DNA of 24,517 bases from an uncultured Cytophagia bacterium (GCA_964419085.1 CAYQOI010000001.1:1-24517), one strand, 5' to 3'; numbered from the stretch's first letter, positions 3,217-24,019 are shown. Notes: generated by a model not told the origin, from the letters alone. Numbers and translations: made by a program.

Positions 3217-3295
3217 CCACACCCAACTGAATCCGGCCCGCCTCCTCGATCCCGAAGGCGTTTTCCGCGTCCGGCCCAAAACGGTGGGGACGTGA

Positions 3296-3847
3296 ATGCC
3301 GACGCGCGCCCGACTCAGGGAAACCGCGGCCGTGGGAATTCTATCCTCGCTGGCGTTTGCCGGCGGCTATCTGTTTATTGCGGTCCCCAACGTAGAGATT
3401 TTCACCGCGATCGTCTTTTTGTCCGGCCTGCTTCTCGGCCCGCGCGGTGGCATGCTGGTGGGGCTCATCGCGCAGACGCTCTACGCAACCCTGAACCCCT
3501 ACGGCGTGTCGCCGCCGCCGTTGCTGGTGGCACAGATTCTCAACCGCGTGCTGGTCGGATATGTGGGCGGCCGCTTTCGCACTCTGGGGCTGACGGAAGG
3601 GAACCCCTGGCGTCTCGGAATGTACTTCGGGACAGCAGGCTTGCTGCTCACCGTGCTCTTCGATTTGATGACCGACGTCAGCTTTTTCTTTGTTTCCGGT
3701 TTCTCGCTCCAGCAGATGAAAACCACTTTCACCTTTGGGCTCCCGTTCTATCTGGTGCACTCGCTGGTCAACACGGGTGTTTTTGGGCTGGTGCTTCCTT
3801 TTGTGGTCCGGGCGTTACGGCGAACCGCTCTGTTGCGCGTGAGTTGA
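3296..3847 (+). CDS. ECF transporter substrate-binding S component, substrate uncertain
   Basis: 183 aa with about six hydrophobic helices. The N-terminus FIAVPNVEIFTAIVFLSGLLLGP...GMLVG is typical of S components, and PNV(E/Q) resembles CbrT-like members. Confidence 0.75.
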   Translation: MPTRARLRETAAVGILSSLAFAGGYLFIAVPNVEIFTAIVFLSGLLLGPRGGMLVGLIAQTLYATLNPYGVSPPPLLVAQILNRVLVGYVGGRFRTLGLTEGNPWRLGMYFGTAGLLLTVLFDLMTDVSFFFVSGFSLQQMKTTFTFGLPFYLVHSLVNTGVFGLVLPFVVRALRRTALLRVS

Positions 3848-3851
3848 TGCG

Positions 3852-6380: not shown

Positions 6381-7328
6381 ATGTATACGAATTCCAAATC
6401 CAGGACCATTTTGGTGGTCGATGATGTTCCGGTCAACATTCAGTTGCTGAATACTTATTTGTCTGCGGAAGGGTATGTGGTGGTCACAGCGCAGGATGGG
6501 GTAGAGGCTCTGGAGAAGGTGAAGACGCTCGATCCCGATTTGGTGCTTCTGGATGTCATGATGCCGAAAATGAACGGATTCGAGGTGTGCAAAGCGATCA
6601 AGTCCGATGTCGACACCAAGTTTATTCCGGTGATCATGGTGACTGCGCTCAACGAACTGCAGGATAAGCTCAAGGGAATGGATTCGGGGGCGGATGACTT
6701 CCTGAGCAAGCCGTTCAACAAGTTGGAGCTTCTGGCGCGCGTGCGTTCGCTGCTGCGGATCAAGTATTTGCACGACGAGCTGCAGTTGAAGGTGATCGAG
6801 TTGCAGAAGGCCAAAGAGGAATTGCGACAATTGGCCATCACAGATGGGTTGACCGGGTTGTACAATTACCGCTATTTTAAGGAACATCTGCAGCAAGAGA
6901 TGAACCGCGCCCGTCGCCATGGTTCGCATGTTTCATTGATCATGATCGATATCGATCATTTCAAGCACTACAACGACACGCACGGTCACCCGGCGGGCGA
7001 TTTGGTGTTGAAGAACATCGCCACGCTGCTGAAGTCCAATATTCGCAGCATCGACCTGGCCGCGCGTTACGGCGGCGAAGAGTTTTCTCTGGTGCTCATC
7101 GAGACCAACAAGGCGGCGGCCAAGATTGTGGCGGAGAAGATTCGCCGTTTGGTCGAAGATCACGTATTCGAGTTTGAGGAAACGCAACCGGACGGCAAGC
7201 TCACCATCAGCACCGGCGTGGCCACTTTTCCCGAGGATGCCACCGATTTCGATGAGCTGGTCCAGGTGGCCGACCGACGGCTGTACATGGCGAAACAGGC
7301 GGGGCGCAATACCATTTTTGCGGAGTGA
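6381..7328 (+). CDS. Response regulator diguanylate cyclase (REC-GGDEF)
   Basis: REC with VVDD, LLDVMMP, MVTA and FLSKPF. GGDEF domain with DGLTGLYN, DIDHFKHYNDTHGHPAGD and RYGGEEF, plus an RxxD I-site (RSID) five residues upstream. Confidence 0.93.
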   Translation: MYTNSKSRTILVVDDVPVNIQLLNTYLSAEGYVVVTAQDGVEALEKVKTLDPDLVLLDVMMPKMNGFEVCKAIKSDVDTKFIPVIMVTALNELQDKLKGMDSGADDFLSKPFNKLELLARVRSLLRIKYLHDELQLKVIELQKAKEELRQLAITDGLTGLYNYRYFKEHLQQEMNRARRHGSHVSLIMIDIDHFKHYNDTHGHPAGDLVLKNIATLLKSNIRSIDLAARYGGEEFSLVLIETNKAAAKIVAEKIRRLVEDHVFEFEETQPDGKLTISTGVATFPEDATDFDELVQVADRRLYMAKQAGRNTIFAE

Positions 7329-7337
7329 GGGGAAAGC

Positions 7338-8819
7338 ATGAAATCCTGGTTTAGAAACTCGCTGTTTCAAAAGCTGTTCATCCTGACCTTTTTGGTGGCG
7401 GTGGTGCCCGTGGGACTCTCGTGGGTTTACTTTCTCTATATTGAAAATGGGACGTTCCGGGGCCGCGCAGCCACGCTGCCGGTGGTGTACTACGCGCTCT
7501 TTGGTCTGACTATCATTCTGGCAGCGGTGGGTGCCTACACCTTCAGCCGGCACATCAGCCGCCCCATCCGACATTTTATCAAGACCGCGACCGAGATCGC
7601 GCGCGGTAATTTTTCGCAACGCGTGGCGGTGGAATCCAACGACGAGATCGGCCGGCTGGCCAGAATCTTCAACTACATGGTGACCGAGTTGCGCCGGCTG
7701 GACGAAATGAACCTCAACAAGATCATCAACGAGAAAAACAAGACCGAAACCATTCTCAAGAATATCGCCGACGGCGTGATCGTCACCGACCCGTACGACA
7801 AGGTGCTGTTGATCAACTATGCCGCTGAACAGTGGTTCGGCCTGAAAGGCCGTCAGGTTGTCGATCGTTCCCTCACGGAAGTCGTGAAGAGCAGCACTCT
7901 CATCGAATTCATTCACAGTATTGCCACAAACAACAGACCCAGCGAAAAGTTCGAGAACATCGAGATCGCGCTGGATGTTCCGGAGTCCCGAAAGCCGGTT
8001 TTGCAGGCGCGGGCCGCAAAGATCATCAACGATAAGGGCGAGTTGATCGGCATCGTCACTGTACTGCGGGACATCACCAAAGAGAAAGAAATCGATCGGA
8101 TGAAGACCGAGTTGGTGTCGATGGTTGCACACGAATTGCGCTCGCCTCTCACCTGCATTTCCGGATTCAGCGAGCTGCTGCTGGATCCCACCATTACGCA
8201 AGAGCAGTCGGAGGAGTACGCCACCATCATTTTGAAAGAATCTAATCGGTTGAGCGAGCTCATCAACAAGTTTCTGGATATTTCGAAAATCGAGGCCGGA
8301 AAGAGCCAGTTGCGCAAGTCTCCGGTGGACATGAAAATGCTCATCGAGAAGGTGCTGGATTTCAATGCGCAGTTGGCAGACAAGAAATCCATTCGCGTCA
8401 ACTTTGAGGCGCCTAAGGAAGTGACCATCCTCAATCTGGATCGCGATATGATGGAGCAAGCGGTGCTCAATCTGTTCTCCAATGCCGTCAAATACAGCCC
8501 GAAAGGGGCCAGGATCACCGTGCGGCTGAGAGAGGATGACAGCTCCCTGATCTTCGATGTGGAAGATACCGGGTACGGCATCTCGGAGAAATCCCTCCCG
8601 CATATTTTCGATAAGTTCTACCGGATCACCGACAACGAGCAGGTGCGCGACATCATGGGATCCGGTCTGGGGTTGTCGTTGGTGCGCGAAATCGTGGAAA
8701 TCCACGGCGGAAGCATCAAGGTGAAAAGCATGCTGGGAAAAGGCTCGACCTTCACCGTGATTTTGCCCAAGTGCGAGTCTGTGCAGGAAGAAGCCAGTAA
8801 CGAAGAGATCTTGAGTTAA
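7338..8819 (+). CDS. Membrane sensor histidine kinase (2 TM-HAMP-PAS-HisKA-HATPase)
   Basis: Two TM helices, HAMP (DEIGRLARIFNYM), PAS (NIADGVIVTD), H-box AHELRSPL, N-box NLFSNAVKYS, DTGYGI and GSGLGL. Confidence 0.92.
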   Translation: MKSWFRNSLFQKLFILTFLVAVVPVGLSWVYFLYIENGTFRGRAATLPVVYYALFGLTIILAAVGAYTFSRHISRPIRHFIKTATEIARGNFSQRVAVESNDEIGRLARIFNYMVTELRRLDEMNLNKIINEKNKTETILKNIADGVIVTDPYDKVLLINYAAEQWFGLKGRQVVDRSLTEVVKSSTLIEFIHSIATNNRPSEKFENIEIALDVPESRKPVLQARAAKIINDKGELIGIVTVLRDITKEKEIDRMKTELVSMVAHELRSPLTCISGFSELLLDPTITQEQSEEYATIILKESNRLSELINKFLDISKIEAGKSQLRKSPVDMKMLIEKVLDFNAQLADKKSIRVNFEAPKEVTILNLDRDMMEQAVLNLFSNAVKYSPKGARITVRLREDDSSLIFDVEDTGYGISEKSLPHIFDKFYRITDNEQVRDIMGSGLGLSLVREIVEIHGGSIKVKSMLGKGSTFTVILPKCESVQEEASNEEILS

Positions 8820-8836: not shown

Positions 8837-10741
8837 GTGGAAGGAAAGAAACAAAAAACAATTCTGTTTGTCGACGACGACCCTGACATGCTGGAGATCG
8901 GCGGTATCATGCTGCGCAAGGCGGGATACGATTACCTCTCCGCCAGCTCCGGCGAGGAGGGGCTGAGCGTCCTGCTGGCCAGCAAGCCCGATCTGGTCAT
9001 TCTGGACTATATGATGCCGGGGATGAACGGATTTGAATTTTTCAAGCAGATGCGGCAGCATCCGAAATACAAGCCGGTCCGCCTCACGCCGGTGATCATG
9101 CTCACCGCGTACTCCGAGAAGGAGATCGAACGTCAGGCCTTGTTCGAGATGGGACTCAGCGCGTTTTTGCTCAAGCCGTTCGGCAATCGTGAACTGGTCA
9201 ACGTCATCGACAATGTTTTTATTCTGCATGAGCTGCGTGTAAAGAACAAGGAGCTGCAGGAACAGGTCAAACGCACGGAATACAAGTACCAGGACCTCAT
9301 CGAGAATGCCAGCGACATGATCTTCACGCTGAATCGGGAAGCGCGGTTTGTGTTCATCAATCGTCGACTGACCAGCATCACCGGACACAGTCGCGGGGAC
9401 TGGCTGGGCAAGCGTTTTGTGGATCTGATTGTTCCCGAGGACCGGGAGACCGCGAATCAAAATGTGCAAAAGACTATCACCGGGAAGGCCAGCATCTTCG
9501 AGGTCCGCTGTTGCCACACCAATGGCAAGCGGGTGCATCTGTCCATCAACATCAATCCGATTTTCGAAAGAGGGCAGGTCGTCGGATGTGTGGGCATCGC
9601 ACGGGACATCACCGAAAAAAAACAGCTCGAACAGGAGATCATCGAGCTGAAGAATTTCAACGAGAGCATCATCCAGAGCATGGGCTCCGGGTTGATCACC
9701 ATCGATTTTGAACGCCGCGTCACCTCCTTTAATCAGGGCGCGGAGGAGATGCTCGGCTACGCGGCCGAGGATGTGGTGGGCAAGCCGCTGGAGAGTCTTT
9801 TCCCAAAGGAAGACTGCGAGCGCCTTTTGTCCAATGTAGACGACCCGGACCGGAGTCTGCTGAACCGCGAGATGCAGTTGGGCACAAAAAACGGCCACTC
9901 CATTTATGTTGGGTTCACCGCCACCCCGCGGTTCGACACGCAAGGCAGGCGGGTGGGGGCGATCATTTCGTTCAAGGACATCACCCAGATCAAGCAGATG
10001 CAGAGCGAGGTTCAGCGGATGGACCGGCTGGCCTCCATGGGGGTGCTGGCCTCAGGGATTGCCCACGAAATCCGCAATCCGCTGGCCGGGATCAAGACCA
10101 TCGCGCAGACGCTGGAAGAGGACATCGAGCCGGATGATTCTCGCCGCGAATATGTCTCGCGCATCGTGCGCCAGGTCAACCGGATGGATGATCTTCTGAA
10201 AACCATCTTTTCCTACGCCAAGCCGCGGGAGCCGCAGAGAAAGTACCACCGGCTTCAGGAAATCGTGCAGGAAGTCGTGGCGCTGCTGGAAAATCGCATG
10301 CGGTCTCAATCGGTTGAGTTCGTCGAATCCTATCATCCGGAGTTGCCGCTGGCTTACGTCGATTTTTACCAGATTCAGCAGGTTTTCGTCAACCTGTTTT
10401 TGAATGCCCTGGATGCGATGCCGGACGGGGGGACGCTCAAGCTCGATGCCCACCCGAAGGTCACCACGCTTCATCGCGTCGACCGTCGCGGACGGCCGTT
10501 TACGGTGCAGAACAAAAGCGCGCTGTACGTGCAGGTGCTGCTGAGCGATACGGGTGTGGGGATCCAGCCCTCGGATTTGCCGTCGATTTTCAATCCTTTT
10601 TTCACGACCAAACCGCAAGGCTCAGGCCTTGGGCTGTCCATCGTCTATCGGATCATGACCGAACACAACGGGGACATCCAGGTAAACAGTGAGATGAACA
10701 AGGGAACGACTTTTTCGTTACTGCTACCAACGGAGGAGTGA
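8837..10741 (+). CDS. Cytoplasmic hybrid histidine kinase (REC-PAS-PAS-HisKA-HATPase, NtrB/AtoS-like)
   Basis: N-terminal REC (VDDD, LDYMMP, LKPF), two PAS domains, H-box IAHEIRNPL, NLFLNALDAM, DTGVGI, FNPFFTTK and GSGLGL. No TM segment. GTG start. Confidence 0.92.
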   Translation: MEGKKQKTILFVDDDPDMLEIGGIMLRKAGYDYLSASSGEEGLSVLLASKPDLVILDYMMPGMNGFEFFKQMRQHPKYKPVRLTPVIMLTAYSEKEIERQALFEMGLSAFLLKPFGNRELVNVIDNVFILHELRVKNKELQEQVKRTEYKYQDLIENASDMIFTLNREARFVFINRRLTSITGHSRGDWLGKRFVDLIVPEDRETANQNVQKTITGKASIFEVRCCHTNGKRVHLSININPIFERGQVVGCVGIARDITEKKQLEQEIIELKNFNESIIQSMGSGLITIDFERRVTSFNQGAEEMLGYAAEDVVGKPLESLFPKEDCERLLSNVDDPDRSLLNREMQLGTKNGHSIYVGFTATPRFDTQGRRVGAIISFKDITQIKQMQSEVQRMDRLASMGVLASGIAHEIRNPLAGIKTIAQTLEEDIEPDDSRREYVSRIVRQVNRMDDLLKTIFSYAKPREPQRKYHRLQEIVQEVVALLENRMRSQSVEFVESYHPELPLAYVDFYQIQQVFVNLFLNALDAMPDGGTLKLDAHPKVTTLHRVDRRGRPFTVQNKSALYVQVLLSDTGVGIQPSDLPSIFNPFFTTKPQGSGLGLSIVYRIMTEHNGDIQVNSEMNKGTTFSLLLPTEE

Positions 10742-10747
10742 GAAGTC

Positions 10748-12118
10748 ATGTCGCAAGCCAATGTGCTGATCGTCGAGGACAATGAGGATTTGTGCCAGAC
10801 TTTGGCCGATGTTCTGCGGAAGGAAGGCAACAAGGTTCGGACGGCCCTGACGGGCGAGCACGCACTTTCCATCTTAAATAAGGATATTATCGATCTTGTT
10901 CTGCTGGACATCAAGCTGCCGGACTTGAACGGGATCAAGATTCTCCAGGACATCAAAGACATGGACCCCGACGTGCTGGTGATCATGATCACGGCGTTGA
11001 CCGATGCGAAGCCCGCGGTGGAAGCGATGAAAATGGGCGCGTACGACTACCTCATGAAGCCGTTCGAGTTGGATGAGCTGAAACTGGTTGTGGCCAAAGC
11101 CCTGGAGACGCAGAACCTGAAACGGGAGGTTTCTCGCCTGAAGACGCAGCAGCATGAGCAGTTTCCGGACAACGAGTTGTACGGCGAATCCAAACCCATG
11201 CAAGAGCTCAAAAAAATGATCAAAATCGTGGCCAGTACGCCCAAGACCTCTGTTCTGATCCAGGGAGAAAGCGGCACCGGAAAAGAGCTCGTGGCCAACG
11301 CGATCCACAACTGGAGCGCCCGGGCCGACAAGCCGCTGATCAAAATAAACTGCAGCGCCATTCCGGAAAACCTGCTGGAAAGCGAGCTCTTCGGCTATGA
11401 AAAAGGCGCGTTCACGGATGCCAAATCCATGAAAAAGGGCATCTTCGAAATGGCCAACAACGGCACCATCTTTCTCGACGAGATCTCCAGCATGCAAATG
11501 TCTATCCAGCCGAAGTTCCTGCGCGTGCTGGAGACCCAGTCGTTCCGCCGCATCGGCGGGACCTCCGACATTCAGATCGACGTGCGGATCATCGCGGCGA
11601 CCAACCGCAATCTCGAGGATTGCGTGGAGCAACAAACCTTTCGCGAGGACCTGTACTATCGTCTGAAGGTCATGGTGCTGAATCTGCCGCCGCTCAGAGA
11701 GCGCACCGAGGACATCATTCCCTTGGCCATGCTGTTCATCGAGCGCAACAACAAAGAATTCGGCAAAGAGATCAAGGGCATCGCACCGGGGGCACAAAGA
11801 CGTCTCCTGGAGTACCGCTGGCCGGGCAACGTCCGCGAACTCAAGAACGTCATCGAACGCGCGGTTATTCTTTGCGGGGCTCCGGAGCTGGAAGCCGAAC
11901 ATCTGCCGCTGGAGATTCAAAACGGAGTCTCGAAACTCTCCACCTCCAATGAGTTTACCGCCCTGGCCGGTGACGACGATTCGTTGGAGGAGATGGAGAG
12001 ACGTCACATCATCAACGTGCTCAAGAAGTACAACGGCAACAAATCCAAGACCGCGAGGATGCTGAACATCTCGCGCTCCACCCTGCGCGAAAAGATGCGC
12101 AACTACGGCATTTCCTGA
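10748..12118 (+). CDS. Sigma54-dependent transcriptional activator (NtrC family; REC-AAA+-Fis HTH)
   Basis: REC, Walker A GESGTGKE, GAFTDA loop (variant of GAFTGA), Walker B FLDEI, FREDLYYRL, WPGNVRELKNVIER and a C-terminal HTH (NKSKTARMLNISRSTL). Confidence 0.95.
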   Translation: MSQANVLIVEDNEDLCQTLADVLRKEGNKVRTALTGEHALSILNKDIIDLVLLDIKLPDLNGIKILQDIKDMDPDVLVIMITALTDAKPAVEAMKMGAYDYLMKPFELDELKLVVAKALETQNLKREVSRLKTQQHEQFPDNELYGESKPMQELKKMIKIVASTPKTSVLIQGESGTGKELVANAIHNWSARADKPLIKINCSAIPENLLESELFGYEKGAFTDAKSMKKGIFEMANNGTIFLDEISSMQMSIQPKFLRVLETQSFRRIGGTSDIQIDVRIIAATNRNLEDCVEQQTFREDLYYRLKVMVLNLPPLRERTEDIIPLAMLFIERNNKEFGKEIKGIAPGAQRRLLEYRWPGNVRELKNVIERAVILCGAPELEAEHLPLEIQNGVSKLSTSNEFTALAGDDDSLEEMERRHIINVLKKYNGNKSKTARMLNISRSTLREKMRNYGIS

Positions 12119-12152: not shown

Positions 12153-12199
12153 GGTCGAAAATCGACCACCTACCCGAAAATGACGCGGTAGAATCTACC
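12153..12199. promoter_or_regulatory. Putative enhancer (UAS) sites for a sigma54 activator: two related palindromes
   Basis: GGTCGA-AAA-TCGACC (12153-12167) and GGTAGA-A-TCTACC (12187-12199), both perfect inverted repeats, about 150-190 bp upstream of the -24 element. Confidence 0.5.
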
Positions 12200-12344: not shown

Positions 12345-12361
12345 CTGGTATGGGTTTTGCT
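12345..12361 (+). promoter_or_regulatory. Sigma54 (-24/-12) promoter
   Basis: CTGGTATGGGTTTTGCT against consensus YTGGCACGRNNNTTGCW: two mismatches and exact GG-N10-GC spacing. It ends 38 nt upstream of ATG 12400. Confidence 0.75.
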
Positions 12362-12399: not shown

Positions 12400-13071
12400 A
12401 TGACAACTGCGAAGCGCATTTTGATCGTCGACGATGAGGAGGACCTGGCATGGGGCATGTCAAAGAGCCTTTCTCGATGCAGGAATCTGGATGTACGGTG
12501 TGCCTATGACGGCAACCAGGCGCTGGCGCTGATGGACAACGAGCGCTTCGACCTGGTCATCTCGGACCTTCGCATGCCCGGGCGCAACGGCTTCGAACTG
12601 ATCCGCGAGATTCGGGAGTCCTACCCCGCCACTCGGGTCATCGTGATGACCGCCTACGGGTCGGAGGAGGTCATGGAACGGGCCGATGACTTCGGGAGCT
12701 TCTTTTATATCGAGAAGCCGTTTGACATGGGATATCTGAAGCAGACAGTCTTTTCCGCGCTGGGGTTGTCGCAGGCCGGGTTCGAGGGCTCGGTGCAACA
12801 TGCCGGCATCCGGGAACTCGTGGAACTAAACTGCTTCAGCCGAAAGGATTCCACCCTATGGGTGTCGCGGCGGCAAGAAAGCGGCGCCATCTATTTTAGA
12901 AATGGAGATGTCGTGCATGCCGAGTGCGGCGAGTTAGTGGGAGAACGGGCTTTCTACAACATCCTGAACTGGGACGGCGGACGCTTCAAGATTCGTCCCG
13001 GTTCGGCGTCCATCAAGCGAACCATTCGAAGGGATTGGCGCTCCCTTCTCCATCAGTGTCAACAGGTTTAG
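12400..13071 (+). CDS. Response regulator with a C-terminal DUF4388 (PATAN-like) domain
   Basis: REC (VDDE, SDLRMP, MTAYG, IEKPF). The C-terminus GFEGSV...IRELVEL...GAIYFRNGDVVHAE...GERAFYNILNWDGGRF matches the recalled DUF4388 pattern. Confidence 0.82.
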   Translation: MTTAKRILIVDDEEDLAWGMSKSLSRCRNLDVRCAYDGNQALALMDNERFDLVISDLRMPGRNGFELIREIRESYPATRVIVMTAYGSEEVMERADDFGSFFYIEKPFDMGYLKQTVFSALGLSQAGFEGSVQHAGIRELVELNCFSRKDSTLWVSRRQESGAIYFRNGDVVHAECGELVGERAFYNILNWDGGRFKIRPGSASIKRTIRRDWRSLLHQCQQV

Positions 13072-13089
13072 AAGACAGGGAAAAGCGAC

Positions 13090-13920
13090 ATGGGAGAAGT
13101 CATCGCAATCGCGAGTCAAAAGGGCGGGGTCGGTAAGACGACCACCGCGGTCAATCTTGGCGCCAGTCTGGCGTCGCTCGGCTATCGTGTGATGCTCATC
13201 GATATCGACCCGCAGGGCAGCGTGGCCGCGAGTTTTGGTTTCAGTCGCTACGATATTCGGGCCGGAATTCTGGATATTTTTACCGATGCGGTCCCCGTGG
13301 AAGAGACCATTCATCCCACCGGCTACAACAATTTCGATTTCATCCCGATGAATGTTTGGTCTGAAGAAAACGAAAAGCGAAAGGCGATGGCCGCCGCGCC
13401 GAAAATCAAACTAAAAGATGCCATTGCGCCCATCAGAGAGAAATATGATTTTATCTTCATCGACTGTCCGCCCTCGCTGGGAAACCTCACGTTCAATGCC
13501 TTGGTGGCGGCGGATTCGCTGATCGTCCCAATCCAGTGCGAGTACTATGCTTTGAAGGCACTGGGGCGATTCTTGAAATTGACGCGCATCATCAAAAATG
13601 AACACAACATCAACCTCAAATATCGGGGTTTTCTCCTCACGATGGTGGATCTTCGGAATCGACTCACTAAAATAGTGGTGGAAAAAATCCGATATACACT
13701 CCAGGGTCTGGTGTTCGACACCATGATCCCCAGGAATGTCAGGTTAGCTGAAGTGCCTTACTACGGGAGACCTGTGATCGGGTTTGACAAGAGCTGTAGA
13801 GGAGCCACCAGCTATTTGGACCTGGCCTACGAAATTCTAGGCCGGGAGAAAAAGACGCAGGCAGTGCGGCCACACGAACGACCCGCCGAGGCGTATCACG
13901 GCGTCACGGCTGCGATGTGA
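13090..13920 (+). CDS. parA: ParA/Soj-family ATPase (orphan, no ParB in the window)
   Basis: Deviant Walker A KGGVGKTT, DIDPQG, DCPPSLG, IVPIQCEYYAL and IPRNVRLAEVP. Confidence 0.9.
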   Translation: MGEVIAIASQKGGVGKTTTAVNLGASLASLGYRVMLIDIDPQGSVAASFGFSRYDIRAGILDIFTDAVPVEETIHPTGYNNFDFIPMNVWSEENEKRKAMAAAPKIKLKDAIAPIREKYDFIFIDCPPSLGNLTFNALVAADSLIVPIQCEYYALKALGRFLKLTRIIKNEHNINLKYRGFLLTMVDLRNRLTKIVVEKIRYTLQGLVFDTMIPRNVRLAEVPYYGRPVIGFDKSCRGATSYLDLAYEILGREKKTQAVRPHERPAEAYHGVTAAM

Positions 13921-13932
13921 GAGGAAGACGAA

Positions 13933-14343
13933 TTGTACAGAATTCTGCTGGTAGAGGACGACGAGAACACGCGCACCGGATTGGCTGAACTGTTGCGACA
14001 GGAAGGCTACGCAGTGGAGTCCGTGGCGACGGCTTCCGCGGCTCGTTCTGCAGTTAGCAGGACGGTAAACTTGATTCTCTCAGATCTGCATCTGCCCGAT
14101 GTCAGCGGGCTTGATTTGTTGGAAGATATTCGACGAGGGATACCAAACATTCCCAGCGTGATGATGACCGCGAACGGGACGCCGGAAAATCGTCGCCGAG
14201 GCGCCCGGCTTGGCGTGCGCCACTGGTTGCAAAAACCGTTGGACCTTCCCAAGCTCTTGGCCGTCATCCGGGAAACGGTAAATGAGGAAACAAAGGGAAA
14301 CCCTTCGCAATTCAAGACCAAGGCCGCATACGTCGAGTCTTGA
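13933..14343 (+). CDS. Single-domain response regulator (REC)
   Basis: ILLVEDD, SDLHLPDVSG, MMTANG and WLQKP. TTG start with GAGGA 7 nt upstream. Confidence 0.85.
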   Translation: MYRILLVEDDENTRTGLAELLRQEGYAVESVATASAARSAVSRTVNLILSDLHLPDVSGLDLLEDIRRGIPNIPSVMMTANGTPENRRRGARLGVRHWLQKPLDLPKLLAVIRETVNEETKGNPSQFKTKAAYVES

Positions 14344-14376
14344 CCTTGAGTTTGCGGAGGCGAGAAAGGAGGCTGG

Positions 14377-15075
14377 GTGAACGCGAAGATCGGTCCGTTT
14401 GTCGGTCTTTTGCTAAAGAAAGGGATTTCGGTTGTTTTTATGGTTTTGTTGTTTGTCTCATTGATGAGCTTTACCGCCGACACGTACAGGATGGAGCAGC
14501 AAGAGCGCCGGGTGCAGCAATGGATAGATTGGGCGCAAGATTTTCGGGACGTTGTGCGAGTGGACAGCGTGCGACAGGCTGCCATCGACAAAGTGGTGCA
14601 GCTCATCGGCAAATACAATCGCCGGATGAGCCGGGAAGAAAAACTCGCTATCGCCAATGAGATCTACCGGATGAGCGTGAAGTACGACAACCTCGATATC
14701 GACCTGATCTGCGCGACGATTACGCATGAGACGGCTTTTACCTGGCGGACGGACATCGTTTCTCCGGTCGGCGCCATGGGGTTGATGCAGATCATGCCAC
14801 ACACCGGCTACTATCTGAGCAGGCACGAGGGCATCAAATGGACGGGCGCAACGAAAGTGCTGTTTAATCCGATTTATAACATCCGGATGGGATGCCGCTA
14901 TCTTTCCACGCTCATCGAGCTCTACGAGGTGGACGGCGGGTTGGCGGCCTACAACGGAGGTGAGCGACGCGCGGCGAGATGGCTGGCCAGCGGGCGCAAC
15001 AACCAGGTGCTGTTTGAAGAAACCAGAGAGTACGTGCCTGCGGTGCTCAGGCTGTACAACACCTACAAGAATTGA
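14377..15075 (+). CDS. Lytic transglycosylase (SLT domain) with N-terminal membrane anchor or signal
   Basis: Catalytic Glu motif ATITHETAF, GAMGLMQIMP, NIRMGCRYL, LAAYNGG and ETREYV. Hydrophobic N-terminus. AAGGAGG RBS before GTG 14377. Confidence 0.88.
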   Translation: MNAKIGPFVGLLLKKGISVVFMVLLFVSLMSFTADTYRMEQQERRVQQWIDWAQDFRDVVRVDSVRQAAIDKVVQLIGKYNRRMSREEKLAIANEIYRMSVKYDNLDIDLICATITHETAFTWRTDIVSPVGAMGLMQIMPHTGYYLSRHEGIKWTGATKVLFNPIYNIRMGCRYLSTLIELYEVDGGLAAYNGGERRAARWLASGRNNQVLFEETREYVPAVLRLYNTYKN

Positions 15076-16881
15076 ATGATGTCGACGCAAATGGCCGAAA
15101 TGTCTGAAGAGCGGTTTGTGGCAGAGCTGATTTCGCGGTTCTTTCATCGAGACAGCTACTTCTACTACTGCCTGAATCACCAACTGGAGGCTTCCCTCAA
15201 GGACGAACCGCTTGCGCAAGACCAGAGGTACGTGATTTTCGGTCATATTTTGGATAAGCTGGTGGAGGCGGAGGACAAGCTTTCGGAACTGAGCACCCTG
15301 GGTTCGGGAACCGAATTCGAGAACAGTTACAAGGCTCTCCTCGATGGTGCCAAAAAGCTGCGGCACGCCGAGTTGGTCGCCGAAACCATGAAGATAGAAA
15401 TCGAGCGTTTGGCCAAATCGTTTTTCCACAGCACGCTGAGCGCTTTGCAGGACGTTCGCACACAAAATCTTTTCTTACAGAAACTGGGAATGGCGGACCC
15501 GCTGACCGGGAACGGCACGCCTGAATTAGAGTTGGAAGAGCCGCTTTCTGAAGGACCAGTACTAGCGGAATCGAGTTTCTCCCTAAACGATCTCGCTGAG
15601 AGTGCGGGGGAAGCGACCACTGCGCCGACGGAAAAGGAGTTCCACACCGATCCAGAGACAGACAAGGAAGTCTTCGATTTGGGTGGATTCGAGAACGGTA
15701 CATCCGAAGGGAGCGGCTCTTCTGATTCTAACGGCGGCCCGGTCGACGGCACGAAGTTGCAGCCCAATCACGAGCCCGCGAGTCTGGTGGCGGTGTTTGC
15801 GGACAAAGCGCAGCAGCAGCTCGACCGGCTCGAACAAGGCCTGGCGGAATTGGCCCTGGCTCCCGGCGACGTGAGCGGCTGGAAAACCTGTGAGCTCGCG
15901 TTCGAGTCCATAGCCGGCATGGCGATGGTCTACGGTTTCGACGCGGTGGAGCAGATCGCAAACAAAGCGCGCCGCTTCATCGGTGACATCTACAAGGCGA
16001 ACCTCGATCGCAAAGCATCCGCGGTGGATGCCATCAACTGCGTACAGCAAAAGCTGCGCACGTTGTTGCGAAACGTTGAAGCAGTCGACGGAGGGGCGGT
16101 TCAGAGCATCGTGGATGAGCTCACCACGGCCCGGACGACATCGGCTCAAAAAAAAAGTGAAGAAATAAGCGTCGTCTCGGATACGCCTGCGGTCGGCGAC
16201 GGTTCGTCCGACTTGCCCGTGGCTGACAACCCTCCTTCTCAGGACGCCCGACAGCTTAAACTGCCCGGTGAAGATGACGAAGAGATTTTGCAACTCATCA
16301 AAGAAATTCGCCGCGAAAAGAACGTGGCCGTTGCCGATGAGCCGTACGCGTGCGAAGGAAGCGTGTGCGTTCCTCAGGTGGAGACGGTTTCCGTGGTCTC
16401 CTCAGTGACCGACGGGGTGGGGTCACAGGGCGCCCACGATGGAGTGCCGGCGTTCATAGAGAAAGCCGAGCTCTATTTTGCCGTGCTCGACGACGCGCTC
16501 AAGACCCTCGAAGGGGATCCGGAAAACAGGACCGCGCTCGAGGACATCGAGTTGGCCAGCAATTCGTTGTACAACCTCGCGATGCAGTTGGGGCTTGATG
16601 AAGTGGGCAAACTGCCCGCTCTGGTTCTGGATGTCACAAAGCAGGTGCTGGAGACCGATTACTTGATGTCCGCAGGCGATCACCAATTGCTGGTGGAGGC
16701 AATTCAGCGTTTCCGGAGGATCAGGCAATCGGAGGACGTTACAACGGAAGAGTTCAAAGAGGTGCTGCAAATGCTCGAAGACCTGAGGACGAACGTAAAG
16801 ATGTGGCAGGCACCGGAGTTGAACAGCCTGACTCTTGGAGAATCGGATGGGGTGAGGCCGCGGCCTCTCGACCTCCGGTAG
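15076..16881 (+). CDS. Protein with two Hpt-like (CheA P1-like) domains lacking the phosphoacceptor His, separated by acidic linkers
   Basis: Residues ~236-332 and ~456-550 follow the Hpt pattern F.E.A...L..L...L..L...P. The His position holds E277 (FESIAGMAMVYG) and N496 (SNSLYNLAMQLG). The exact start (15076 or a nearby downstream ATG) is uncertain. Confidence 0.7.
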   Translation: MMSTQMAEMSEERFVAELISRFFHRDSYFYYCLNHQLEASLKDEPLAQDQRYVIFGHILDKLVEAEDKLSELSTLGSGTEFENSYKALLDGAKKLRHAELVAETMKIEIERLAKSFFHSTLSALQDVRTQNLFLQKLGMADPLTGNGTPELELEEPLSEGPVLAESSFSLNDLAESAGEATTAPTEKEFHTDPETDKEVFDLGGFENGTSEGSGSSDSNGGPVDGTKLQPNHEPASLVAVFADKAQQQLDRLEQGLAELALAPGDVSGWKTCELAFESIAGMAMVYGFDAVEQIANKARRFIGDIYKANLDRKASAVDAINCVQQKLRTLLRNVEAVDGGAVQSIVDELTTARTTSAQKKSEEISVVSDTPAVGDGSSDLPVADNPPSQDARQLKLPGEDDEEILQLIKEIRREKNVAVADEPYACEGSVCVPQVETVSVVSSVTDGVGSQGAHDGVPAFIEKAELYFAVLDDALKTLEGDPENRTALEDIELASNSLYNLAMQLGLDEVGKLPALVLDVTKQVLETDYLMSAGDHQLLVEAIQRFRRIRQSEDVTTEEFKEVLQMLEDLRTNVKMWQAPELNSLTLGESDGVRPRPLDLR

Positions 16882-16935
16882 GCGTCCTCCGGATTTTGTG
16901 TCCAAGACATTTCTTACAAGCAGATAGGTTTAAGC

Positions 16936-18675
16936 ATGTCCGACTACACCATGGAAACCGACAAAGAGCTGGAAGCCGTTCTGGGTTCGCACAAGACGCG
17001 CATCCGGATTGTGGGGACCGGCGGTGGTGGCAACAACACCGTCACACGACTCCTGGAGTCCGGCACCAAAGAGGTGGAGGTTATCGCGGTCAACACCGAT
17101 GCCCAGGATTTACTTTTCGCCAAAGCACACCAGAAACTCCTCATCGGCAAGAATATCACAAACGGGTTAGGCGCGGGAAGCGACCCGAAGAAAGGGGAGG
17201 AGTCCGCGAAAGAGAGTTTGCCGGAGCTGGAAAAAGCCCTGGCCGGCAGTGACATGGTATTCATCACCTGCGGTCTGGGCGGTGGGACGGGCACGGGCTC
17301 CGCGCCGATCATCGCAGAGACCGCGAAGAAGTGTGGCGCGTTGACCATCGCGATCGTAACCCTGCCGTTCAGCGATGAGGGGGTGGTTCGCTGGGACAAC
17401 GCGCACAAGGGCCTGGAACAGTTGCAGAAGAATGTGGACACCGTGATCGTGGTTCAAAACGACCGGCTTCTGGACCTGGTGCCGGATATGCCGTTGAGCG
17501 CTGCGTTCAAAGTTGCGGACGAAATTCTGGTGAACGCGGTGAAGGGTATCACCGAGCTGGTGACGGAGAAAGGGCTGGTGAACCTGGACTTCGCAGATGT
17601 CAAGACCATCATGGAAAACGGTGGTCTGGCGATGATCGGACTCGGGGAAAGCGAGTCGGAAAAGAACGCGGAGGAGGCGGCGGAAAAGGCCTTGCAAAAC
17701 CCGCTTCTGGACGTGGAGATCACCGGTGCGAGAAGTGCGCTGATCAACATCTCCGGTGGTCCCGATCTCTCGCTCAAGTCCGCCAAAACGATCATGAAGT
17801 TGGTTGCGGAGCGCCTGGACCCGTCCGCGCGGATCATCTGGGGAACGCGACTCGACGAGTCTCTGGGTTCGGCGATCCGGGTGATGCTCATCGTCACCTG
17901 CCTGAAGTCGCACAGACGGTCTGCTTCGGAGGTGGATATCGCGATCAAGAAAACGGCCGCGGATCAGCAGGGAGCCTCGCCGCAAAAGCCCGCCAAGCCG
18001 GCAACCGCGCCCCCTTCTGCGGATGGTTCTAAGAAGAAAGGCCAAAAGACTCAGAAGAACGGTAGTCAGGTGTTCTCTGAGATCTTTATGGAGGAGTCCG
18101 AAGCAGACCTGGTGATGCTGGAGGAGGCGATCAAAAATCTGAGTCCAGGCAACCAGCCTCACAACGAGAAATATCTTCGCAAGATGAAGACGGCTTCCAC
18201 ATCGCTCTACAACTCTTCGGAGCTGTTCGCATATTCGAGGTTGGCGGAGTTTACCGATTTGGTGGTGCAACTTACCGAGGGGGCCATTAAGCAGCAGTTT
18301 GATCTTTCCGAAAACTTGATCGAGCTGTTTCGGGAGATTCCTGCCGCTCTGAACGGGATGATCGTCGACGACAAAAAAGCGTACGAGACCGCGGACGAAT
18401 TGAAGCAGAAGTTTCACAACGTCCTTGACCTGGTGAACAACCCCGCGGGATCCGGAAACGGAGACGCGCCTGCCCAAGCACCTCGCGCAGAGGTGCTGTC
18501 CCCGCTCGACGAGGGTGCCACGCATTCCCCCGCTGCGTTGGGTTCCGAAGTCTCCGGCGCGGCAGGCGACACCGCTGTTGCGCCACAGACAAAGCCGGAG
18601 AGCGCTGTCCCGGAAGATGGGGAAGAAGGCGCCGAGCCCCAGAAAAAGGTTCGGTATTTTGACAAGTTGTTTTGA
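16936..18675 (+). CDS. ftsZ: FtsZ-family GTPase resembling archaeal FtsZ1, fused to a C-terminal His-less Hpt-like domain
   Basis: Tubulin signature GLGGGTGTGSAP, NTDAQ, GLGAG and T7 loop NLDFADV in residues ~20-325. Residues ~378-500 are Hpt-like, and the protein has low-complexity linkers. Confidence 0.9.
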   Translation: MSDYTMETDKELEAVLGSHKTRIRIVGTGGGGNNTVTRLLESGTKEVEVIAVNTDAQDLLFAKAHQKLLIGKNITNGLGAGSDPKKGEESAKESLPELEKALAGSDMVFITCGLGGGTGTGSAPIIAETAKKCGALTIAIVTLPFSDEGVVRWDNAHKGLEQLQKNVDTVIVVQNDRLLDLVPDMPLSAAFKVADEILVNAVKGITELVTEKGLVNLDFADVKTIMENGGLAMIGLGESESEKNAEEAAEKALQNPLLDVEITGARSALINISGGPDLSLKSAKTIMKLVAERLDPSARIIWGTRLDESLGSAIRVMLIVTCLKSHRRSASEVDIAIKKTAADQQGASPQKPAKPATAPPSADGSKKKGQKTQKNGSQVFSEIFMEESEADLVMLEEAIKNLSPGNQPHNEKYLRKMKTASTSLYNSSELFAYSRLAEFTDLVVQLTEGAIKQQFDLSENLIELFREIPAALNGMIVDDKKAYETADELKQKFHNVLDLVNNPAGSGNGDAPAQAPRAEVLSPLDEGATHSPAALGSEVSGAAGDTAVAPQTKPESAVPEDGEEGAEPQKKVRYFDKLF

Positions 18676-18684
18676 GCGAACAAA

Positions 18685-19281
18685 ATGGAGCGTCGAGACG
18701 TGGACGAGACATTTCCGCTGCGGCACACCTATTTCCGGGAAATGATGCGCAGCCTGAAAAAGATGAAAGCGGCTCTGGGCGCGTGGCAGAAACGGCCAGA
18801 GGAGAGAACGCACCCGCAAGCCATCGCAGCGGCGGCGCGGGAGGTGGCAGACCTGGCGATGATCCACGGCTACGAGGGTGTGGAGAGTATCGCGGAGCAG
18901 TTGCAGCAGAGCCTTGGGCGAATGAATCTTTCCGACGACCCGGAGCGAGCGGGCGTTTTTCTCAAGGTGGAATCCGCGATCGTCGCGATCCGACAGATCG
19001 CTCGCATCGAGGATTTTCTGGAAGGTCGCCTCACCGTGAGACGAGTTGCCGCCGACCGCGGCGATGATGTTTCCTCTCACACGGTGAAGATAGGTGACGA
19101 AGAAGCCGAGCCGTTCTGTGAGATCGAAAAGCTTACCGAGGCCGATTTGAACGATTTGAGCGCAATCTCTTCCCCAGAGCCTCAGTTCGATATCAGCGAG
19201 TTCGAGTCTGTGGCACATCTGATGGCCAAAGCCCGGACGCCGCGCGCCGAGTCTCCCTCGTCCGATTCCCTGCCACATTAA
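18685..19281 (+). CDS. Hpt-like domain protein lacking the canonical phosphoacceptor His, with an acidic C-terminal tail
   Basis: AAREVADLAMIHGYEGVESIA closely parallels AFESIAGMAMVYGFDAVEQIA in ORF 15076. It starts 9 nt after the ftsZ stop. Confidence 0.65.
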   Translation: MERRDVDETFPLRHTYFREMMRSLKKMKAALGAWQKRPEERTHPQAIAAAAREVADLAMIHGYEGVESIAEQLQQSLGRMNLSDDPERAGVFLKVESAIVAIRQIARIEDFLEGRLTVRRVAADRGDDVSSHTVKIGDEEAEPFCEIEKLTEADLNDLSAISSPEPQFDISEFESVAHLMAKARTPRAESPSSDSLPH

Positions 19282-21490: not shown

Positions 21491-21832
21491 ATGAAGATTA
21501 AAGAGCGGATTCTGGGTAATGTGGCGATTTTGGAGCTCAGCGGGAAGTTACTGGGCGGACCGCCGGATTCCCAGGAATTTAAGGACAAAATCTATGCCCT
21601 TATCGACCAGGGCATCGTGAATGTTGTGGTGGATCTCAAGGACGTCAAGCGGATGAACAGTTCCGGGCTCGGGATTCTGATTTCGGCGCTGACATCCTTG
21701 CGAAACAGGAACGGCGATCTCAAGCTTGCGGCTATCGATGAATTGATGGAAGGCATTTTGATCATGACCAAATTGAACACCATCTTTGAAACTTATGACA
21801 CGGCAGAAGGCGCAGCACAGAGTTTCAAATAA
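21491..21832 (+). CDS. Anti-sigma factor antagonist (STAS domain, SpoIIAA/RsbV family)
   Basis: 113 aa. VAILELSGKL, VVVDLKDVKRMNSSGLGILI (phosphorylatable Ser motif) and GDLKLA. AAGGAGG RBS. Confidence 0.9.
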   Translation: MKIKERILGNVAILELSGKLLGGPPDSQEFKDKIYALIDQGIVNVVVDLKDVKRMNSSGLGILISALTSLRNRNGDLKLAAIDELMEGILIMTKLNTIFETYDTAEGAAQSFK

Positions 21833-21872
21833 AAGGCGCGGTTCCGTGGCACCAGTCGATTGTTTCCAGAAT

Positions 21873-21897
21873 GAGAGCTCCTTGGCTCTCTTTTTTT
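21873..21897 (+). terminator. Intrinsic terminator after the STAS gene
   Basis: GAGAGC-tccttg-GCTCTC followed by T7. Confidence 0.7.
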
Positions 21898-21934
21898 GGT
21901 TTATTTTCGAACGTGAAGATTAAGGGAGGTTACG

Positions 21935-24019
21935 GTGAAAGAGTATTCTCCGGTGGATATCAGAAACCTGGCTCTGATCGGTCACGCGACCGTCGGTAAG
22001 ACCACGCTCTCCGAGGCGATGCTTTTTACCGCAGGCGAAATCAACCGGCAGGGCACGGTCGATGATGGTAGTACGACATCCGATTACAACGCAGATGAGA
22101 TCGAGCGCAAGATCTCCATCAACACTTCCCTTCTTCACTGTGCGTGGAAAAACCGAAAGATAAACATCTTGGATACGCCGGGGTACTCCGATTTTATCGG
22201 CGAGGTCAAGGGTACGCTGCGGGTCACAGACCTGGCTGTGGTCGTCATCAATGCCGTCGCCGGCGTGGAAGTCGGTACCGAAACGGTCTGGAAGATGAAC
22301 GCGGAGTACGGGCATCCGGCCGTGTTTTTCCTCAATCGGCTGGACAAAGAGCACGCTGACTTTGATAAGTCTCTGGCGGGACTGCAAGAGCGTTTTGGAA
22401 AACAAGTTGTCGCCGTACATTTGCCCACCAACCCGGGAGAAGATTTCGATTCGTTCGTGGACCTCATCTCGATGCAACAGGTCACTTATTCCCGGGATGG
22501 TTCGGGGAAGTTCTCCGTGACCGACATTCCCGGGGAGTTGAAAGGCCGGGCCGAAGAGCTCCACGAAAAGTTGGTGGAAGTGGCTGCTGAAAACGATGAC
22601 GCGCTGTTGGAGAAGTTTTTCGATGAGGGGGGACTCTCGCCTGAAGAGATCGCGAAGGGGTTGCGGCTGGGCATTCTGAACAAGGGCATCTATCCGGTAC
22701 TCTCCGGTGCCGCGGCTGGAAACATCGGGGTGGCGCATCTGTTGGATTTTATCGCGGACTTCGCGCCGTCGCCCGTGGATCTGCCGCCTGAAGTGGCCAC
22801 CCGGGTCGGGTCCAACGAAGAGGTCACCCGGGAATGCAAGGAGGACCTTCCGGTCGCGCTGCTCGTTTTCAAAACCGTGGCCGAGCAGCATGTGGGGGAA
22901 CTCTCCTTTTTCAGAATGGTCTCCGGTCGGCTGGCCTCGGGCACAACCATCATGAACACCAGCCGCAACATTTCGGAAAAGATCGGCCAGATCTTTTTCA
23001 TGAATGGCAAGAATCGCAAAGAGGTGGGTAACGTGGTTGCCGGCGACATTGCAGCGACGGTCAAGCTCAAGGACACCCACACCGGTAACACCCTCAGCGA
23101 CAAAAAAGATCCCATCGTGCTCAAGGGCATCGATTTCCCTGCGCCGGTGATCCGAATTGCGGTGGAGCCGAAGGCCAAAGGCGACGAAGATAAGATTTCG
23201 TCCGGTCTCAGCATGCTGCACGAACAGGATCCCACATTTGTGGCTTCCCACGACAGCGAGCTCAAACAAACCATCATCGCTGGCCAGGGAGAGTTGCATC
23301 TGGATATCGTGGTCAAGCGGTTGAAAGAGAAATTCGGGGTGGACGTGAATCTCGTGGAACCCAAGATTCCTTACCGGGAGACCATCACCGCCACCGCGCA
23401 AGCCCAGGGCAAGTACAAGAAGCAGTCCGGCGGCCGCGGGCAGTACGGGGATGTCTGGCTCAAACTGGAGCCGCTCAAGGGAGACCAGGAGTTTGAGTTT
23501 GTGGATGCGATCGTCGGGGGCGTCGTGCCGGGCAAGTTCATTCCCGCGGTGGAGAAAGGCGTGCGCGAAACGATGGAAGAGGGGGTGCTGGCAGGCTACC
23601 GCGTGACGGGAGTGAAGGTCACCCTTTACGACGGCAGCTACCACAGCGTCGACTCTTCCGAAATGGCCTTCAAGATCGCCGGGTCCATGGCGTTCAAAAA
23701 GGCGTTCCACGAGGCCAAACCGGTTCTTTTGGAGCCTATTTACGATGTGGAGGTGGTCGTCCCGGAAGAGTTTATGGGGGATGTCATGGGTGATCTCTCC
23801 AGCCGCCGCGGCAAGATCGCGGGCATGGATTCAGAAGGGCCGTTTCAGCTCATCAAAGCGAAAGTCCCGCTTGCGGAATTGTACAAATACTCGACTTCGC
23901 TGCGTTCGCTGACGCAGGGTCGGGGGTTGCATCGTCGCAAGTTTTCGCACTACGAGCAGGTGCCCCATGACGTGGCCGAGAAGGTGATCGCGCAAGCGCA
24001 GGAAGAAAAGCAGCAATGA
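21935..24019 (+). CDS. fusA: Elongation factor G paralog (EF-G2/EFG II-like)
   Basis: Full five-domain EF-G length (694 aa) with GQGELHL, PKIPYRETI, KKQSGGRGQYG, YDGSYHSVDSSEMAFKIAG and LLEPI. The G-motifs are divergent: GHATVGKTT, DTPGYSDF, NRLD. GGGAGG RBS and GTG start. Confidence 0.9.
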   Translation: MKEYSPVDIRNLALIGHATVGKTTLSEAMLFTAGEINRQGTVDDGSTTSDYNADEIERKISINTSLLHCAWKNRKINILDTPGYSDFIGEVKGTLRVTDLAVVVINAVAGVEVGTETVWKMNAEYGHPAVFFLNRLDKEHADFDKSLAGLQERFGKQVVAVHLPTNPGEDFDSFVDLISMQQVTYSRDGSGKFSVTDIPGELKGRAEELHEKLVEVAAENDDALLEKFFDEGGLSPEEIAKGLRLGILNKGIYPVLSGAAAGNIGVAHLLDFIADFAPSPVDLPPEVATRVGSNEEVTRECKEDLPVALLVFKTVAEQHVGELSFFRMVSGRLASGTTIMNTSRNISEKIGQIFFMNGKNRKEVGNVVAGDIAATVKLKDTHTGNTLSDKKDPIVLKGIDFPAPVIRIAVEPKAKGDEDKISSGLSMLHEQDPTFVASHDSELKQTIIAGQGELHLDIVVKRLKEKFGVDVNLVEPKIPYRETITATAQAQGKYKKQSGGRGQYGDVWLKLEPLKGDQEFEFVDAIVGGVVPGKFIPAVEKGVRETMEEGVLAGYRVTGVKVTLYDGSYHSVDSSEMAFKIAGSMAFKKAFHEAKPVLLEPIYDVEVVVPEEFMGDVMGDLSSRRGKIAGMDSEGPFQLIKAKVPLAELYKYSTSLRSLTQGRGLHRRKFSHYEQVPHDVAEKVIAQAQEEKQQ

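Follow-up and report, generated by a model that had tools for sequence, protein, structure and literature searches.

The DNA analysed here is a stretch of 24,517 nucleotides (nt) from an uncultured Cytophagia bacterium (GCA_964419085.1, CAYQOI010000001.1:1-24517), and "the window" below means this whole stretch. Its central feature is an operon at positions 12400-19281 in which an FtsZ resembling archaeal FtsZ1 is fused to a histidine phosphotransfer (Hpt)-like domain of the CheA-P1 type and is encoded together with a ParA-type ATPase, a lytic transglycosylase, REC proteins and further Hpt-like modules. Domains were called by Pfam and NCBIfam scans of the open reading frames (ORFs) of the window. 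The operon, its promoter element and the two regulatory genes ahead of it are as follows (position, strand, feature).

8837-10741 (+), cytoplasmic hybrid sensor kinase, REC-PAS-PAS-HisKA-HATPase (Pfam)
10748-12118 (+), NtrC-type sigma-54 enhancer-binding protein (EBP), REC-AAA+-HTH_8 (Pfam Sigma54_activat, 235.6 bits)
12346-12361 (+), sigma-54 -24/-12 element TGGTATGGGTTTTGCT, that is TGGTAT-N5-TTGCT, with canonical GG/GC spacing
12400-13071 (+), REC-PATAN (DUF4388) response regulator (Pfam DUF4388 56.5 bits, REC 93.8 bits)
13090-13920 (+), ParA/Soj-type ATPase (Pfam AAA_31 175.9 bits, also CbiA)
13933-14343 (+), single-domain, CheY-like REC protein with the acceptor Asp present (Pfam Response_reg 80.6 bits)
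14377-15075 (+), membrane-anchored SLT-family lytic transglycosylase (Pfam SLT 58.9 bits, cut-off 21.3)
15076-16881 (+), scaffold-like protein of 601 amino acids (aa) with a weak Hpt/CheA-P1 match (Pfam)
16936-18675 (+), FtsZ-P1 fusion ORF, with a 245-residue extension weakly matching CheA P1 (TIGR00065)
16936-17940 (+), FtsZ core of the fusion, residues 1-335 (TIGR00065, 419.6 bits)
18067-18444 (+), His-less CheA-P1-type Hpt domain of the fusion, residues 378-503 (hhalign, AlphaFold2 (AF2), Foldseek)
18643-18672 (+), terminal amphipathic peptide KKVRYFDKLF of the fusion (alignment of relatives)
18685-19281 (+), 198-aa protein with an acidic tail and no match in the first Pfam/NCBIfam scan

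All seven ORFs of the operon lie on the plus strand and are separated by gaps of 18, 12, 33, 0, 54 and 9 nt, in exact agreement with the original prediction, which had described seven co-oriented genes spaced in this way. The parts that it had listed (FtsZ, ParA, SLT, REC-DUF4388 and REC) were all matched by Pfam or NCBIfam. It had further held that the context contains no ftsA, ftsQ, mur, lpxC or parB, and indeed none of these was found among the window ORFs scanned. The gene downstream of the operon is guaB.

The FtsZ core passed the TIGR00065 cut-off of 295.2 bits and also matched Tubulin (PF00091, 157.6 bits) and FtsZ_C (PF12327, 110.8 bits). In the genome to which the window belongs, that of an uncultured KSB1 bacterium of a hot spring (570 contigs, 89% complete), two FtsZ matches lay above the cut-off. 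The other one is a 405-aa protein on contig C449 with ftsA directly 5' of it, and the two proteins are 44% identical. Hence, the operon FtsZ is an accessory copy, and the normal ftsA-ftsZ pair is kept elsewhere in the genome; the separate canonical ftsZ whose existence the original prediction had left to be confirmed is thereby located. The window copy carries the GTP-binding signature GGGTG[ST]G, as do 30 of 31 relatives, and it shares the T7 catalytic loop NxDxxD with all 31. Judged by these residues, the operon FtsZ keeps intact GTPase and polymerisation motifs. Terminal motifs that bind FtsA, ZipA or SepF, including the archaeal GID type, have been described (PMC8178401). Neither the bacterial PxFL nor the archaeal GID peptide was seen in the fused FtsZ in a by-eye check, for which no motif search was run, and SepF was not found in the window genome at its stated completeness.

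The affinity of the operon FtsZ with archaeal FtsZ1 was evident from several comparisons. Its 80 best genome matches were archaeal FtsZ1 proteins with 55-63% core identity, except for three full-length bacterial relatives, and among solved structures M. jannaschii FtsZ1 scored 395 bits versus about 290 bits for bacterial FtsZ. At diagnostic alignment columns the fused FtsZs agreed with FtsZ1 at 14 positions and with bacterial FtsZ at 0, and two one-residue gaps were common to the fused FtsZs, archaeal FtsZ1 and FtsZ2. The motif TCGLGGGTGTG was carried by 39 of 40 FtsZ1 proteins and by 22 of 24 copies from loci of the full layout (described below), while most FtsZ2 and bacterial FtsZ have TAGMGGGTGTG instead. 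In a maximum-likelihood tree (IQ-TREE, LG+C20, 92 rows) all fused FtsZs formed one clade (100/100), which lay on the archaeal side of a branch of length 1.24 (100/100) and grouped with 31 DPANN-type FtsZ1 proteins at 93/87 and with all FtsZ1 at 82/64. The fused copies were nested in FtsZ1 in 200/200 bootstrap trees, and FtsZ1 was monophyletic without them in 0/200. By scores, tree and signature residues, the operon FtsZ is FtsZ1-like, and it was most probably acquired once from archaea. Compared with archaeal FtsZ1 itself (M. jannaschii, PDB 1FSZ/1W58), the likeness comprises core identity and shared signatures and indels, with the grouping in the tree as a less secure point. The fused FtsZ differs in having a bacterial host and a tail in which a dead P1 domain is followed by a new terminal peptide and a SepF-binding peptide was absent by eye, again with no motif search run.

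The nature of this tail was examined in an alignment of 29 FtsZ tails. In most full-layout members a variable linker leads into a domain of about 125 residues, which a second linker joins to the terminal peptide, and the domain in the window is flanked by disordered linkers. Against E. coli CheA P1 this domain gave an hhalign probability of 96% (E 4e-9). Its AF2 model was a five-helix bundle with a predicted local distance difference test score (pLDDT) above 95, and Foldseek placed it on CheA P1 (1I5N) with a target template-modelling score (TM) of 0.84-0.86 and a root-mean-square deviation of 2.4-2.8 A. The window tail itself had no match to Pfam Hpt (PF01627), which was matched at E<=1 by the tails of 25 of 29 relatives (best 6.6e-7); the two Hpt scores recorded in the window, 17.8 and 14.9 bits, were under the cut-off of 24.6. 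When a profile of the P1 domain was searched against 1.84 billion representative sequences, mostly long multi-Hpt kinases were returned, a result that describes family membership and not the range of the fusion; the fused FtsZ-P1 matches in that search carry no taxonomy.

A hidden Markov model of the FtsZ tail detected two more modules in the 601-aa protein, at residues 240-350 and 460-575 (nt 15793-16125 and 16453-16800), and one or two in the downstream proteins of other loci. The 601-aa protein starts with a helical domain (residues 5-140), for which hhalign detected no Hpt likeness, and has disordered acidic linkers between its domains. Three helical domains were modelled by AF2 (pLDDT 80-93), and the best Foldseek matches of its domains were CheA3 P1 structures (3KYI/3KYJ, including the CheA3-P1/CheY6 complex; target TM 0.80-0.82). 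Evidence for the 198-aa protein came from a Pfam Hpt match at E 0.031, an hhalign alignment that is in register but weak (E 0.015), and protein-atlas neighbours that are Hpt clusters; it is probably a fourth His-less Hpt-like module, spanning residues ~12-125.

At the column of CheA His48, histidine was found in 0 of 47 modules from 20 loci. Thr, Ser, Lys, Ile, Glu, Asn, Tyr, Arg and others occupied this position instead, and in the window it is Thr in the FtsZ tail, Glu and Asn in the 601-aa protein and Arg in the 198-aa protein. Because the histidine is missing from all of them, the modules can be regarded as dead phosphotransfer domains. The pseudo-Hpt assignment made beforehand is thus borne out by CheA-P1 folds (hhalign and Foldseek) without histidine. 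The earlier count of four such modules, one of them fused to FtsZ, was also right, with the reservation that the fourth, in the 198-aa protein, is less certain than the other three.

The fused FtsZ of most full-layout relatives ends in a peptide of the form xNVxEAVKYFDKLF, and the minimal-layout proteins end right after the domain. The terminal peptide is strongly amphipathic, with a hydrophobic moment of 0.72, compared with 0.57, by the same calculation, for a peptide taken as the E. coli FtsA membrane-targeting peptide. The terminal peptide may be either a membrane tether or a partner-docking peptide. A separate conserved element was observed between the two P1-like modules of the 601-aa protein, where an LPGEDDEE motif and a short helix (residues 396-416, window 16261-16323) were invariant in 11/11 orthologues and resemble a short motif on which some partner might dock.

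In the REC-PATAN protein, the pocket residues DD11-12, D56, T84 and K106 and the signature DDEEDLxW were invariant in 17 orthologues, including the stand-alone REC protein of the minimal layout, and neither operon REC protein has lost the acidic pocket or the acceptor Asp, the Thr or the Lys. The ParA protein has the deviant Walker A motif KGGVGKT. Its best solved structures were 8RAY and then Soj (Soj structures at E 1e-46), and its MipZ match in Pfam was weak, partial and confined to the N-terminal P-loop. Orthologues of the operon ParA (48-81% identity) were restricted to families with the full operon, namely those of the full-operon class and f17-f19, and a housekeeping Soj (40-45% identity) was found in nearly all genomes, the copy of the window genome being at G000:C193. 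By these comparisons the operon ParA is a distinct paralogue specific to the operon. No ParB domain was found in the scanned window ORFs, and the earlier description of an orphan ParA agrees with an operon-specific paralogue that has no adjacent parB and a separate Soj copy on contig C193. Among 11 SLT orthologues checked, 9 have a hydrophobic anchor at the N terminus and conserve both CATITHE[ST] and AYNGG; those of loci L136 and L137 deviate.

The C-terminal extension was matched in 82 of 167 genomes of the phylum and in 54 of 100 genera, and a second, long FtsZ was detected with the FtsZ family model in about 45 of 61 sampled genomes. One alternative explanation is that the second FtsZ is a routine partner of the canonical one in every division, as FtsZ1 and FtsZ2 are to each other in archaea, and that sigma-54 simply provides housekeeping expression. 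The GTPase motifs are intact in both copies and most genomes of the phylum keep both, and Haloferax requires both FtsZ1 and FtsZ2 (bioRxiv 10.1101/2020.06.04.133736). However, families f7, f8 and f9 have the canonical FtsZ only, in genomes that are 90-100% complete, and the second copy is therefore dispensable. Moreover, the second FtsZ never stands in a division and cell wall (dcw) cluster context, and its tie to a kinase, an activator and a REC gene points to conditional use. We thus consider a routine partnership unlikely.

Some further FtsZ-like genes were noted in the course of this survey. In genome G141 (97% complete), only the fused FtsZ (a 644-aa frame) was found by the FtsZ model and no canonical copy, which reflects either an assembly gap or a genome relying on the fused copy. 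The f4 genomes, which have no fused FtsZ, contain a third FtsZ-like frame. It is divergent, is 511-521 aa long and matches the FtsZ model in the N-terminal half only (115-123 bits):

G043:C95:6832-7296, G044:C9:47706-48173 and G045:C12:166650-167018, loci of the divergent FtsZ-like frames of f4 (FtsZ model)

In two Methanothrix-type archaeal genomes, L102 (G167:C16) and L167 (G172:C1), an extra FtsZ-like match of 241-270 bits, below the cut-off, was located in frames of 569-665 aa with a long N-terminal extension.

Comparison of the neighbourhoods of 20 genomes revealed three layouts. In the full layout (families f1, f2, f5, f12, f14, f17 and f18), the order is REC-PATAN, ParA, sometimes REC, SLT, a multi-module protein of 570-970 aa, the fused FtsZ and a protein of 190-430 aa, often with the kinase and activator upstream. 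Some of these loci are without one gene, e.g. f5 has no adjacent REC gene, and a counterpart of the single-domain REC gene (13933-14343) is present in some of them only. In the minimal layout (families f20-f24 and f26), two histidine kinases (HKs), an EBP, a REC protein and the fused FtsZ are followed by thrS-infC-pheS; the REC protein there has 121-146 aa and is orthologous to the REC domain of REC-PATAN. In the glycan-cluster layout (f15), the fused FtsZ is longer (719-889 aa) and stands without the regulators. The cluster, which is conserved and was seen in f15 and one NCBI assembly, encodes glycosyltransferases together with a heparinase II/III-like protein, an AMP-binding enzyme and a TPR/cytochrome-like protein, at the following loci:

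L140:9431-11779, L144:8442-10601 and L172:9001-11670, glycan-cluster loci (neighbourhood comparison)

In two of the three layouts, a gene for a phosphorylatable REC protein, a sigma-54 element and genes for an NtrC-type activator and a histidine kinase nearly always stand ahead of the fused FtsZ.

The original prediction had been made to depend on these genes occurring together in other genomes, and the gene order does recur across families of the phylum. More than 15 independent assemblies showed the same order, some of it on contigs as long as 0.3-1 Mb; therefore, both chance and a chimeric assembly, the latter a concern raised at the outset, are excluded as its source. In addition, the FtsZ subtree follows the family groupings, which fits vertical descent through much of the KSB1 phylum. 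These results bear on the suspicion, prompted by the origin of the window in a fragmented metagenome bin, that the locus arose by misassembly, was inserted recently by a mobile element, or is decaying and has no function. Given the gene order repeated in many independent assemblies with long contigs, frames that are all open, an FtsZ subtree that tracks the families, and a context in which no integrase or repeats were seen, we hold this to be very improbable.

The layouts also bear on whether the system might be a device for ParA-driven positioning of a signalling or other protein assembly, in which the P1 scaffolds are cargo or adaptors and FtsZ is a structural track with no role in division or in the wall. 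A Soj-type ParA without ParB would suit such a device, as would multi-module, acidic and largely disordered scaffolds that look like adaptors, and the P1 fold derives from chemosensory kinases. Yet the minimal layout dispenses with ParA and scaffolds and keeps the REC protein and the fused FtsZ, the full operon contains a conserved membrane-anchored SLT enzyme with intact catalytic motifs, and no chemoreceptor, CheW or CheA kinase gene was adjacent in the window scans. Positioning of this kind is, in our view, decidedly unlikely.

The promoter and regulators were then compared across loci. The -24/-12 element of the window lies 54 nt ahead of the first start codon. Of 19 full or minimal loci, 14 have an equivalent element 39-73 nt 5' of their first gene, and two more carry one farther upstream, at 161 and 249 nt; the background rate of such matches was 0.024 per 100 nt. 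In 14 related loci an orthologue of the EBP (559-842 bits) stands directly 5' of the operon and is adjoined by an orthologue of the sensor kinase (527-1047 bits), in full and minimal layouts alike. The window genome contains rpoN (456 bits). Sigma-54 control of the operon, as had been predicted, is supported by the conserved element, the adjacent EBP and HK, and the presence of rpoN in the genome, and the hybrid sensor kinase at 8837-10741 is likely to be the sensor of the module. Terminator-like sites inside the operon were not above chance. The spacer between the EBP gene and the promoter contains one further feature:

12153-12199 (.), two perfect palindromes, GGTCGA-N3-TCGACC and GGTAGA-N1-TCTACC (sequence inspection)

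These palindromes were considered as activator sites and rejected, because they are not conserved in related loci: most related spacers contain no matching palindromes with 6-bp arms.

Two further signalling genes stand just 5' of the module kinase: 6381-7328 encodes a diguanylate cyclase (REC-GGDEF) and 7338-8819 a histidine kinase (HAMP-PAS). An input of c-di-GMP into the circuit of the module, from the neighbouring REC-GGDEF gene, is possible. In L004, a KSB1 relative, the upstream gene arrangement differs from that of the window.

Taken together, we interpret the operon as a signal-gated accessory FtsZ cytoskeletal module that is tied to local wall remodelling and has passed by vertical descent through a large part of the KSB1 phylum, and we give this reading slightly better than even odds (a probability of about 0.55). 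The module might work as follows. The PAS kinase would sense a cytoplasmic signal and phosphorylate the activator, whereupon the operon would be switched on, and the same or a neighbouring kinase would supply phosphorylated REC proteins. By analogy with the recruitment of PilG by the His-less scaffold FimL, these REC proteins could bind to the dead P1 modules, both that of the FtsZ tail and those of the two scaffold proteins, and docking would gate the place and time of filament assembly. The terminal helix of FtsZ may tether the filament to the membrane, the Soj-type ParA may position it relative to the nucleoid, and local cleavage of peptidoglycan would fall to the membrane-anchored lytic transglycosylase. 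Least certain is the final step, in which the cell would undergo a conditional event that resembles division or changes its shape; alternative division, shape differentiation and positioning, the roles suggested in the original prediction, are all conceivable for the filament. The full and more specific version, namely that an FtsZ1 was taken up from archaea near the root of the phylum, that a phosphorylated REC protein docks on the His-less CheA-P1 domain fused to it, and that this docking switches the assembly or placement of the filament and thereby sets off a conditional, division-like or morphogenetic event using a dedicated ParA and a wall-cutting enzyme, is put forward tentatively and is possible rather than probable.

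Several observations weigh against this interpretation. The core function can do without ParA, SLT and the scaffold proteins, since neither the minimal nor the glycan-cluster layout has them. Some full-layout members have a divergent terminal peptide or none. A complex prediction for the FtsZ tail and REC-PATAN returned 0.00, which by the rule of the tool is neither support nor contradiction. As to transcription, the locus was found in none of the RNA runs searched, and four metatranscriptomes searched at 80% likeness gave only scraps of 34-75 nt, derived from other organisms, at the Walker A motif and at GGGTGTG. The bacterial FtsZs in the tree came from this phylum and E. coli only; a homologue search seeded with E. 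coli FtsZ returned enterobacterial near-copies only, and the bacterial sampling was not widened. In approximately unbiased (AU) tests, monophyly of FtsZ1 without the fused copies was not rejected (p=0.56), and grouping of the fused copies with bacterial FtsZ gave p=0.51 under sparser sampling with two FtsZ2 only and p=0.063 in the present set. The AU tests did not separate placements of the clade as nested in FtsZ1, as its sister or deeper. Of the earlier claim of an archaeal-type FtsZ, the scores, the side of the tree and the signatures stand, while a bacterial placement is only marginally disfavoured by the last of these p values.

The module was compared with known systems that share some of its parts. 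PomXYZ of Myxococcus and MipZ of Caulobacter are ParA-type systems acting on canonical FtsZ. The present operon resembles them in encoding a ParA-family ATPase together with FtsZ, whose polymer it plausibly positions, and differs in that its ATPase is closest to Soj/ParA and is absent from two of three layouts. No Pfam or NCBIfam name pointed to PomX or PomY in the window scans, in which no search was aimed at them. Accessory FtsZ paralogues form a second group of relatives: FtsZm is a truncated duplicate of bacterial FtsZ, and FtsZl proteins are too diverged for the FtsZ equivalog model. The operon FtsZ, in contrast, exceeds the TIGR00065 cut-off, is FtsZ1-like and is fused to a P1 domain. 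What it has in common with FtsZm of Magnetospirillum and with FtsZl (Makarova and Koonin, PMC2875224) is that each is a second tubulin-family GTPase outside dcw with a presumed specialised role.

The docking step has its closest parallel in FimL of the Pil-Chp system of P. aeruginosa, whose two Hpt-like domains have Gln where the phosphate acceptor would be (PMC3019171) and which brings PilG, a REC protein, to the cell pole (PMC10519157). Both systems have Hpt-like modules that lack the acceptor histidine and relay no phosphate. In the operon, however, one module is fused to FtsZ, the context is neither pilus nor chemosensory, and REC binding is only proposed. The likeness was raised by a language-model feature-similarity lead of 0.85 only, and the Pfam families FimL_2nd and FimL_C had no match at E<=1 in nine proteins. 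A link between a PATAN-REC protein and the FtsZ ring is known for PatA of Anabaena, which binds ZipN and SepF and weakens Z rings, the rings being stronger without PatA (PMC7380572). PATAN and REC occur in both proteins; REC comes first in the operon protein and the order is reversed in PatA (PMC7380572), and the proposed partner of the operon protein is a second, archaeal-type FtsZ. FimL and PatA support, as precedents, the logic of the proposal that REC docking controls FtsZ.

Literature searches aimed at the system yielded no description of the module or of an archaeal-type FtsZ in bacteria, just as the original prediction had known of no described system with this composition. The module was not mentioned in the reviews of FtsZ evolution consulted, nor FtsZ in the Zhuqueibacterota/KSB1 genome paper, and the databases that name the fused protein label it plainly as "cell division protein FtsZ". 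Each part is of a known kind (FtsZ, ParA, REC, dead Hpt scaffold, SLT and sigma-54 control), and their combination was not found described. If the interpretation is true, an archaeal-type FtsZ has long been kept in a bacterial phylum beside the native copy, and domains derived from phosphorelays act as docking parts on a cytoskeletal protein. The module also offers concrete, clonable parts for studying how signalling can control FtsZ assembly, and suggests that this uncultured phylum, which occurs worldwide, may have cell-cycle or differentiation behaviour that has gone unrecognised.

Two observations were made in the window outside the operon. At 3292-5720, a 187-aa ORF without Pfam match precedes a TonB-dependent-receptor-like gene with a 4-nt overlap, and the AT skew of this region is strongly negative, unlike that of the remaining window. 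Just 5' of the EF-G gene (21491-24019 for the region), a small STAS-domain protein of the anti-sigma-antagonist type is encoded, which is unrelated to the operon.

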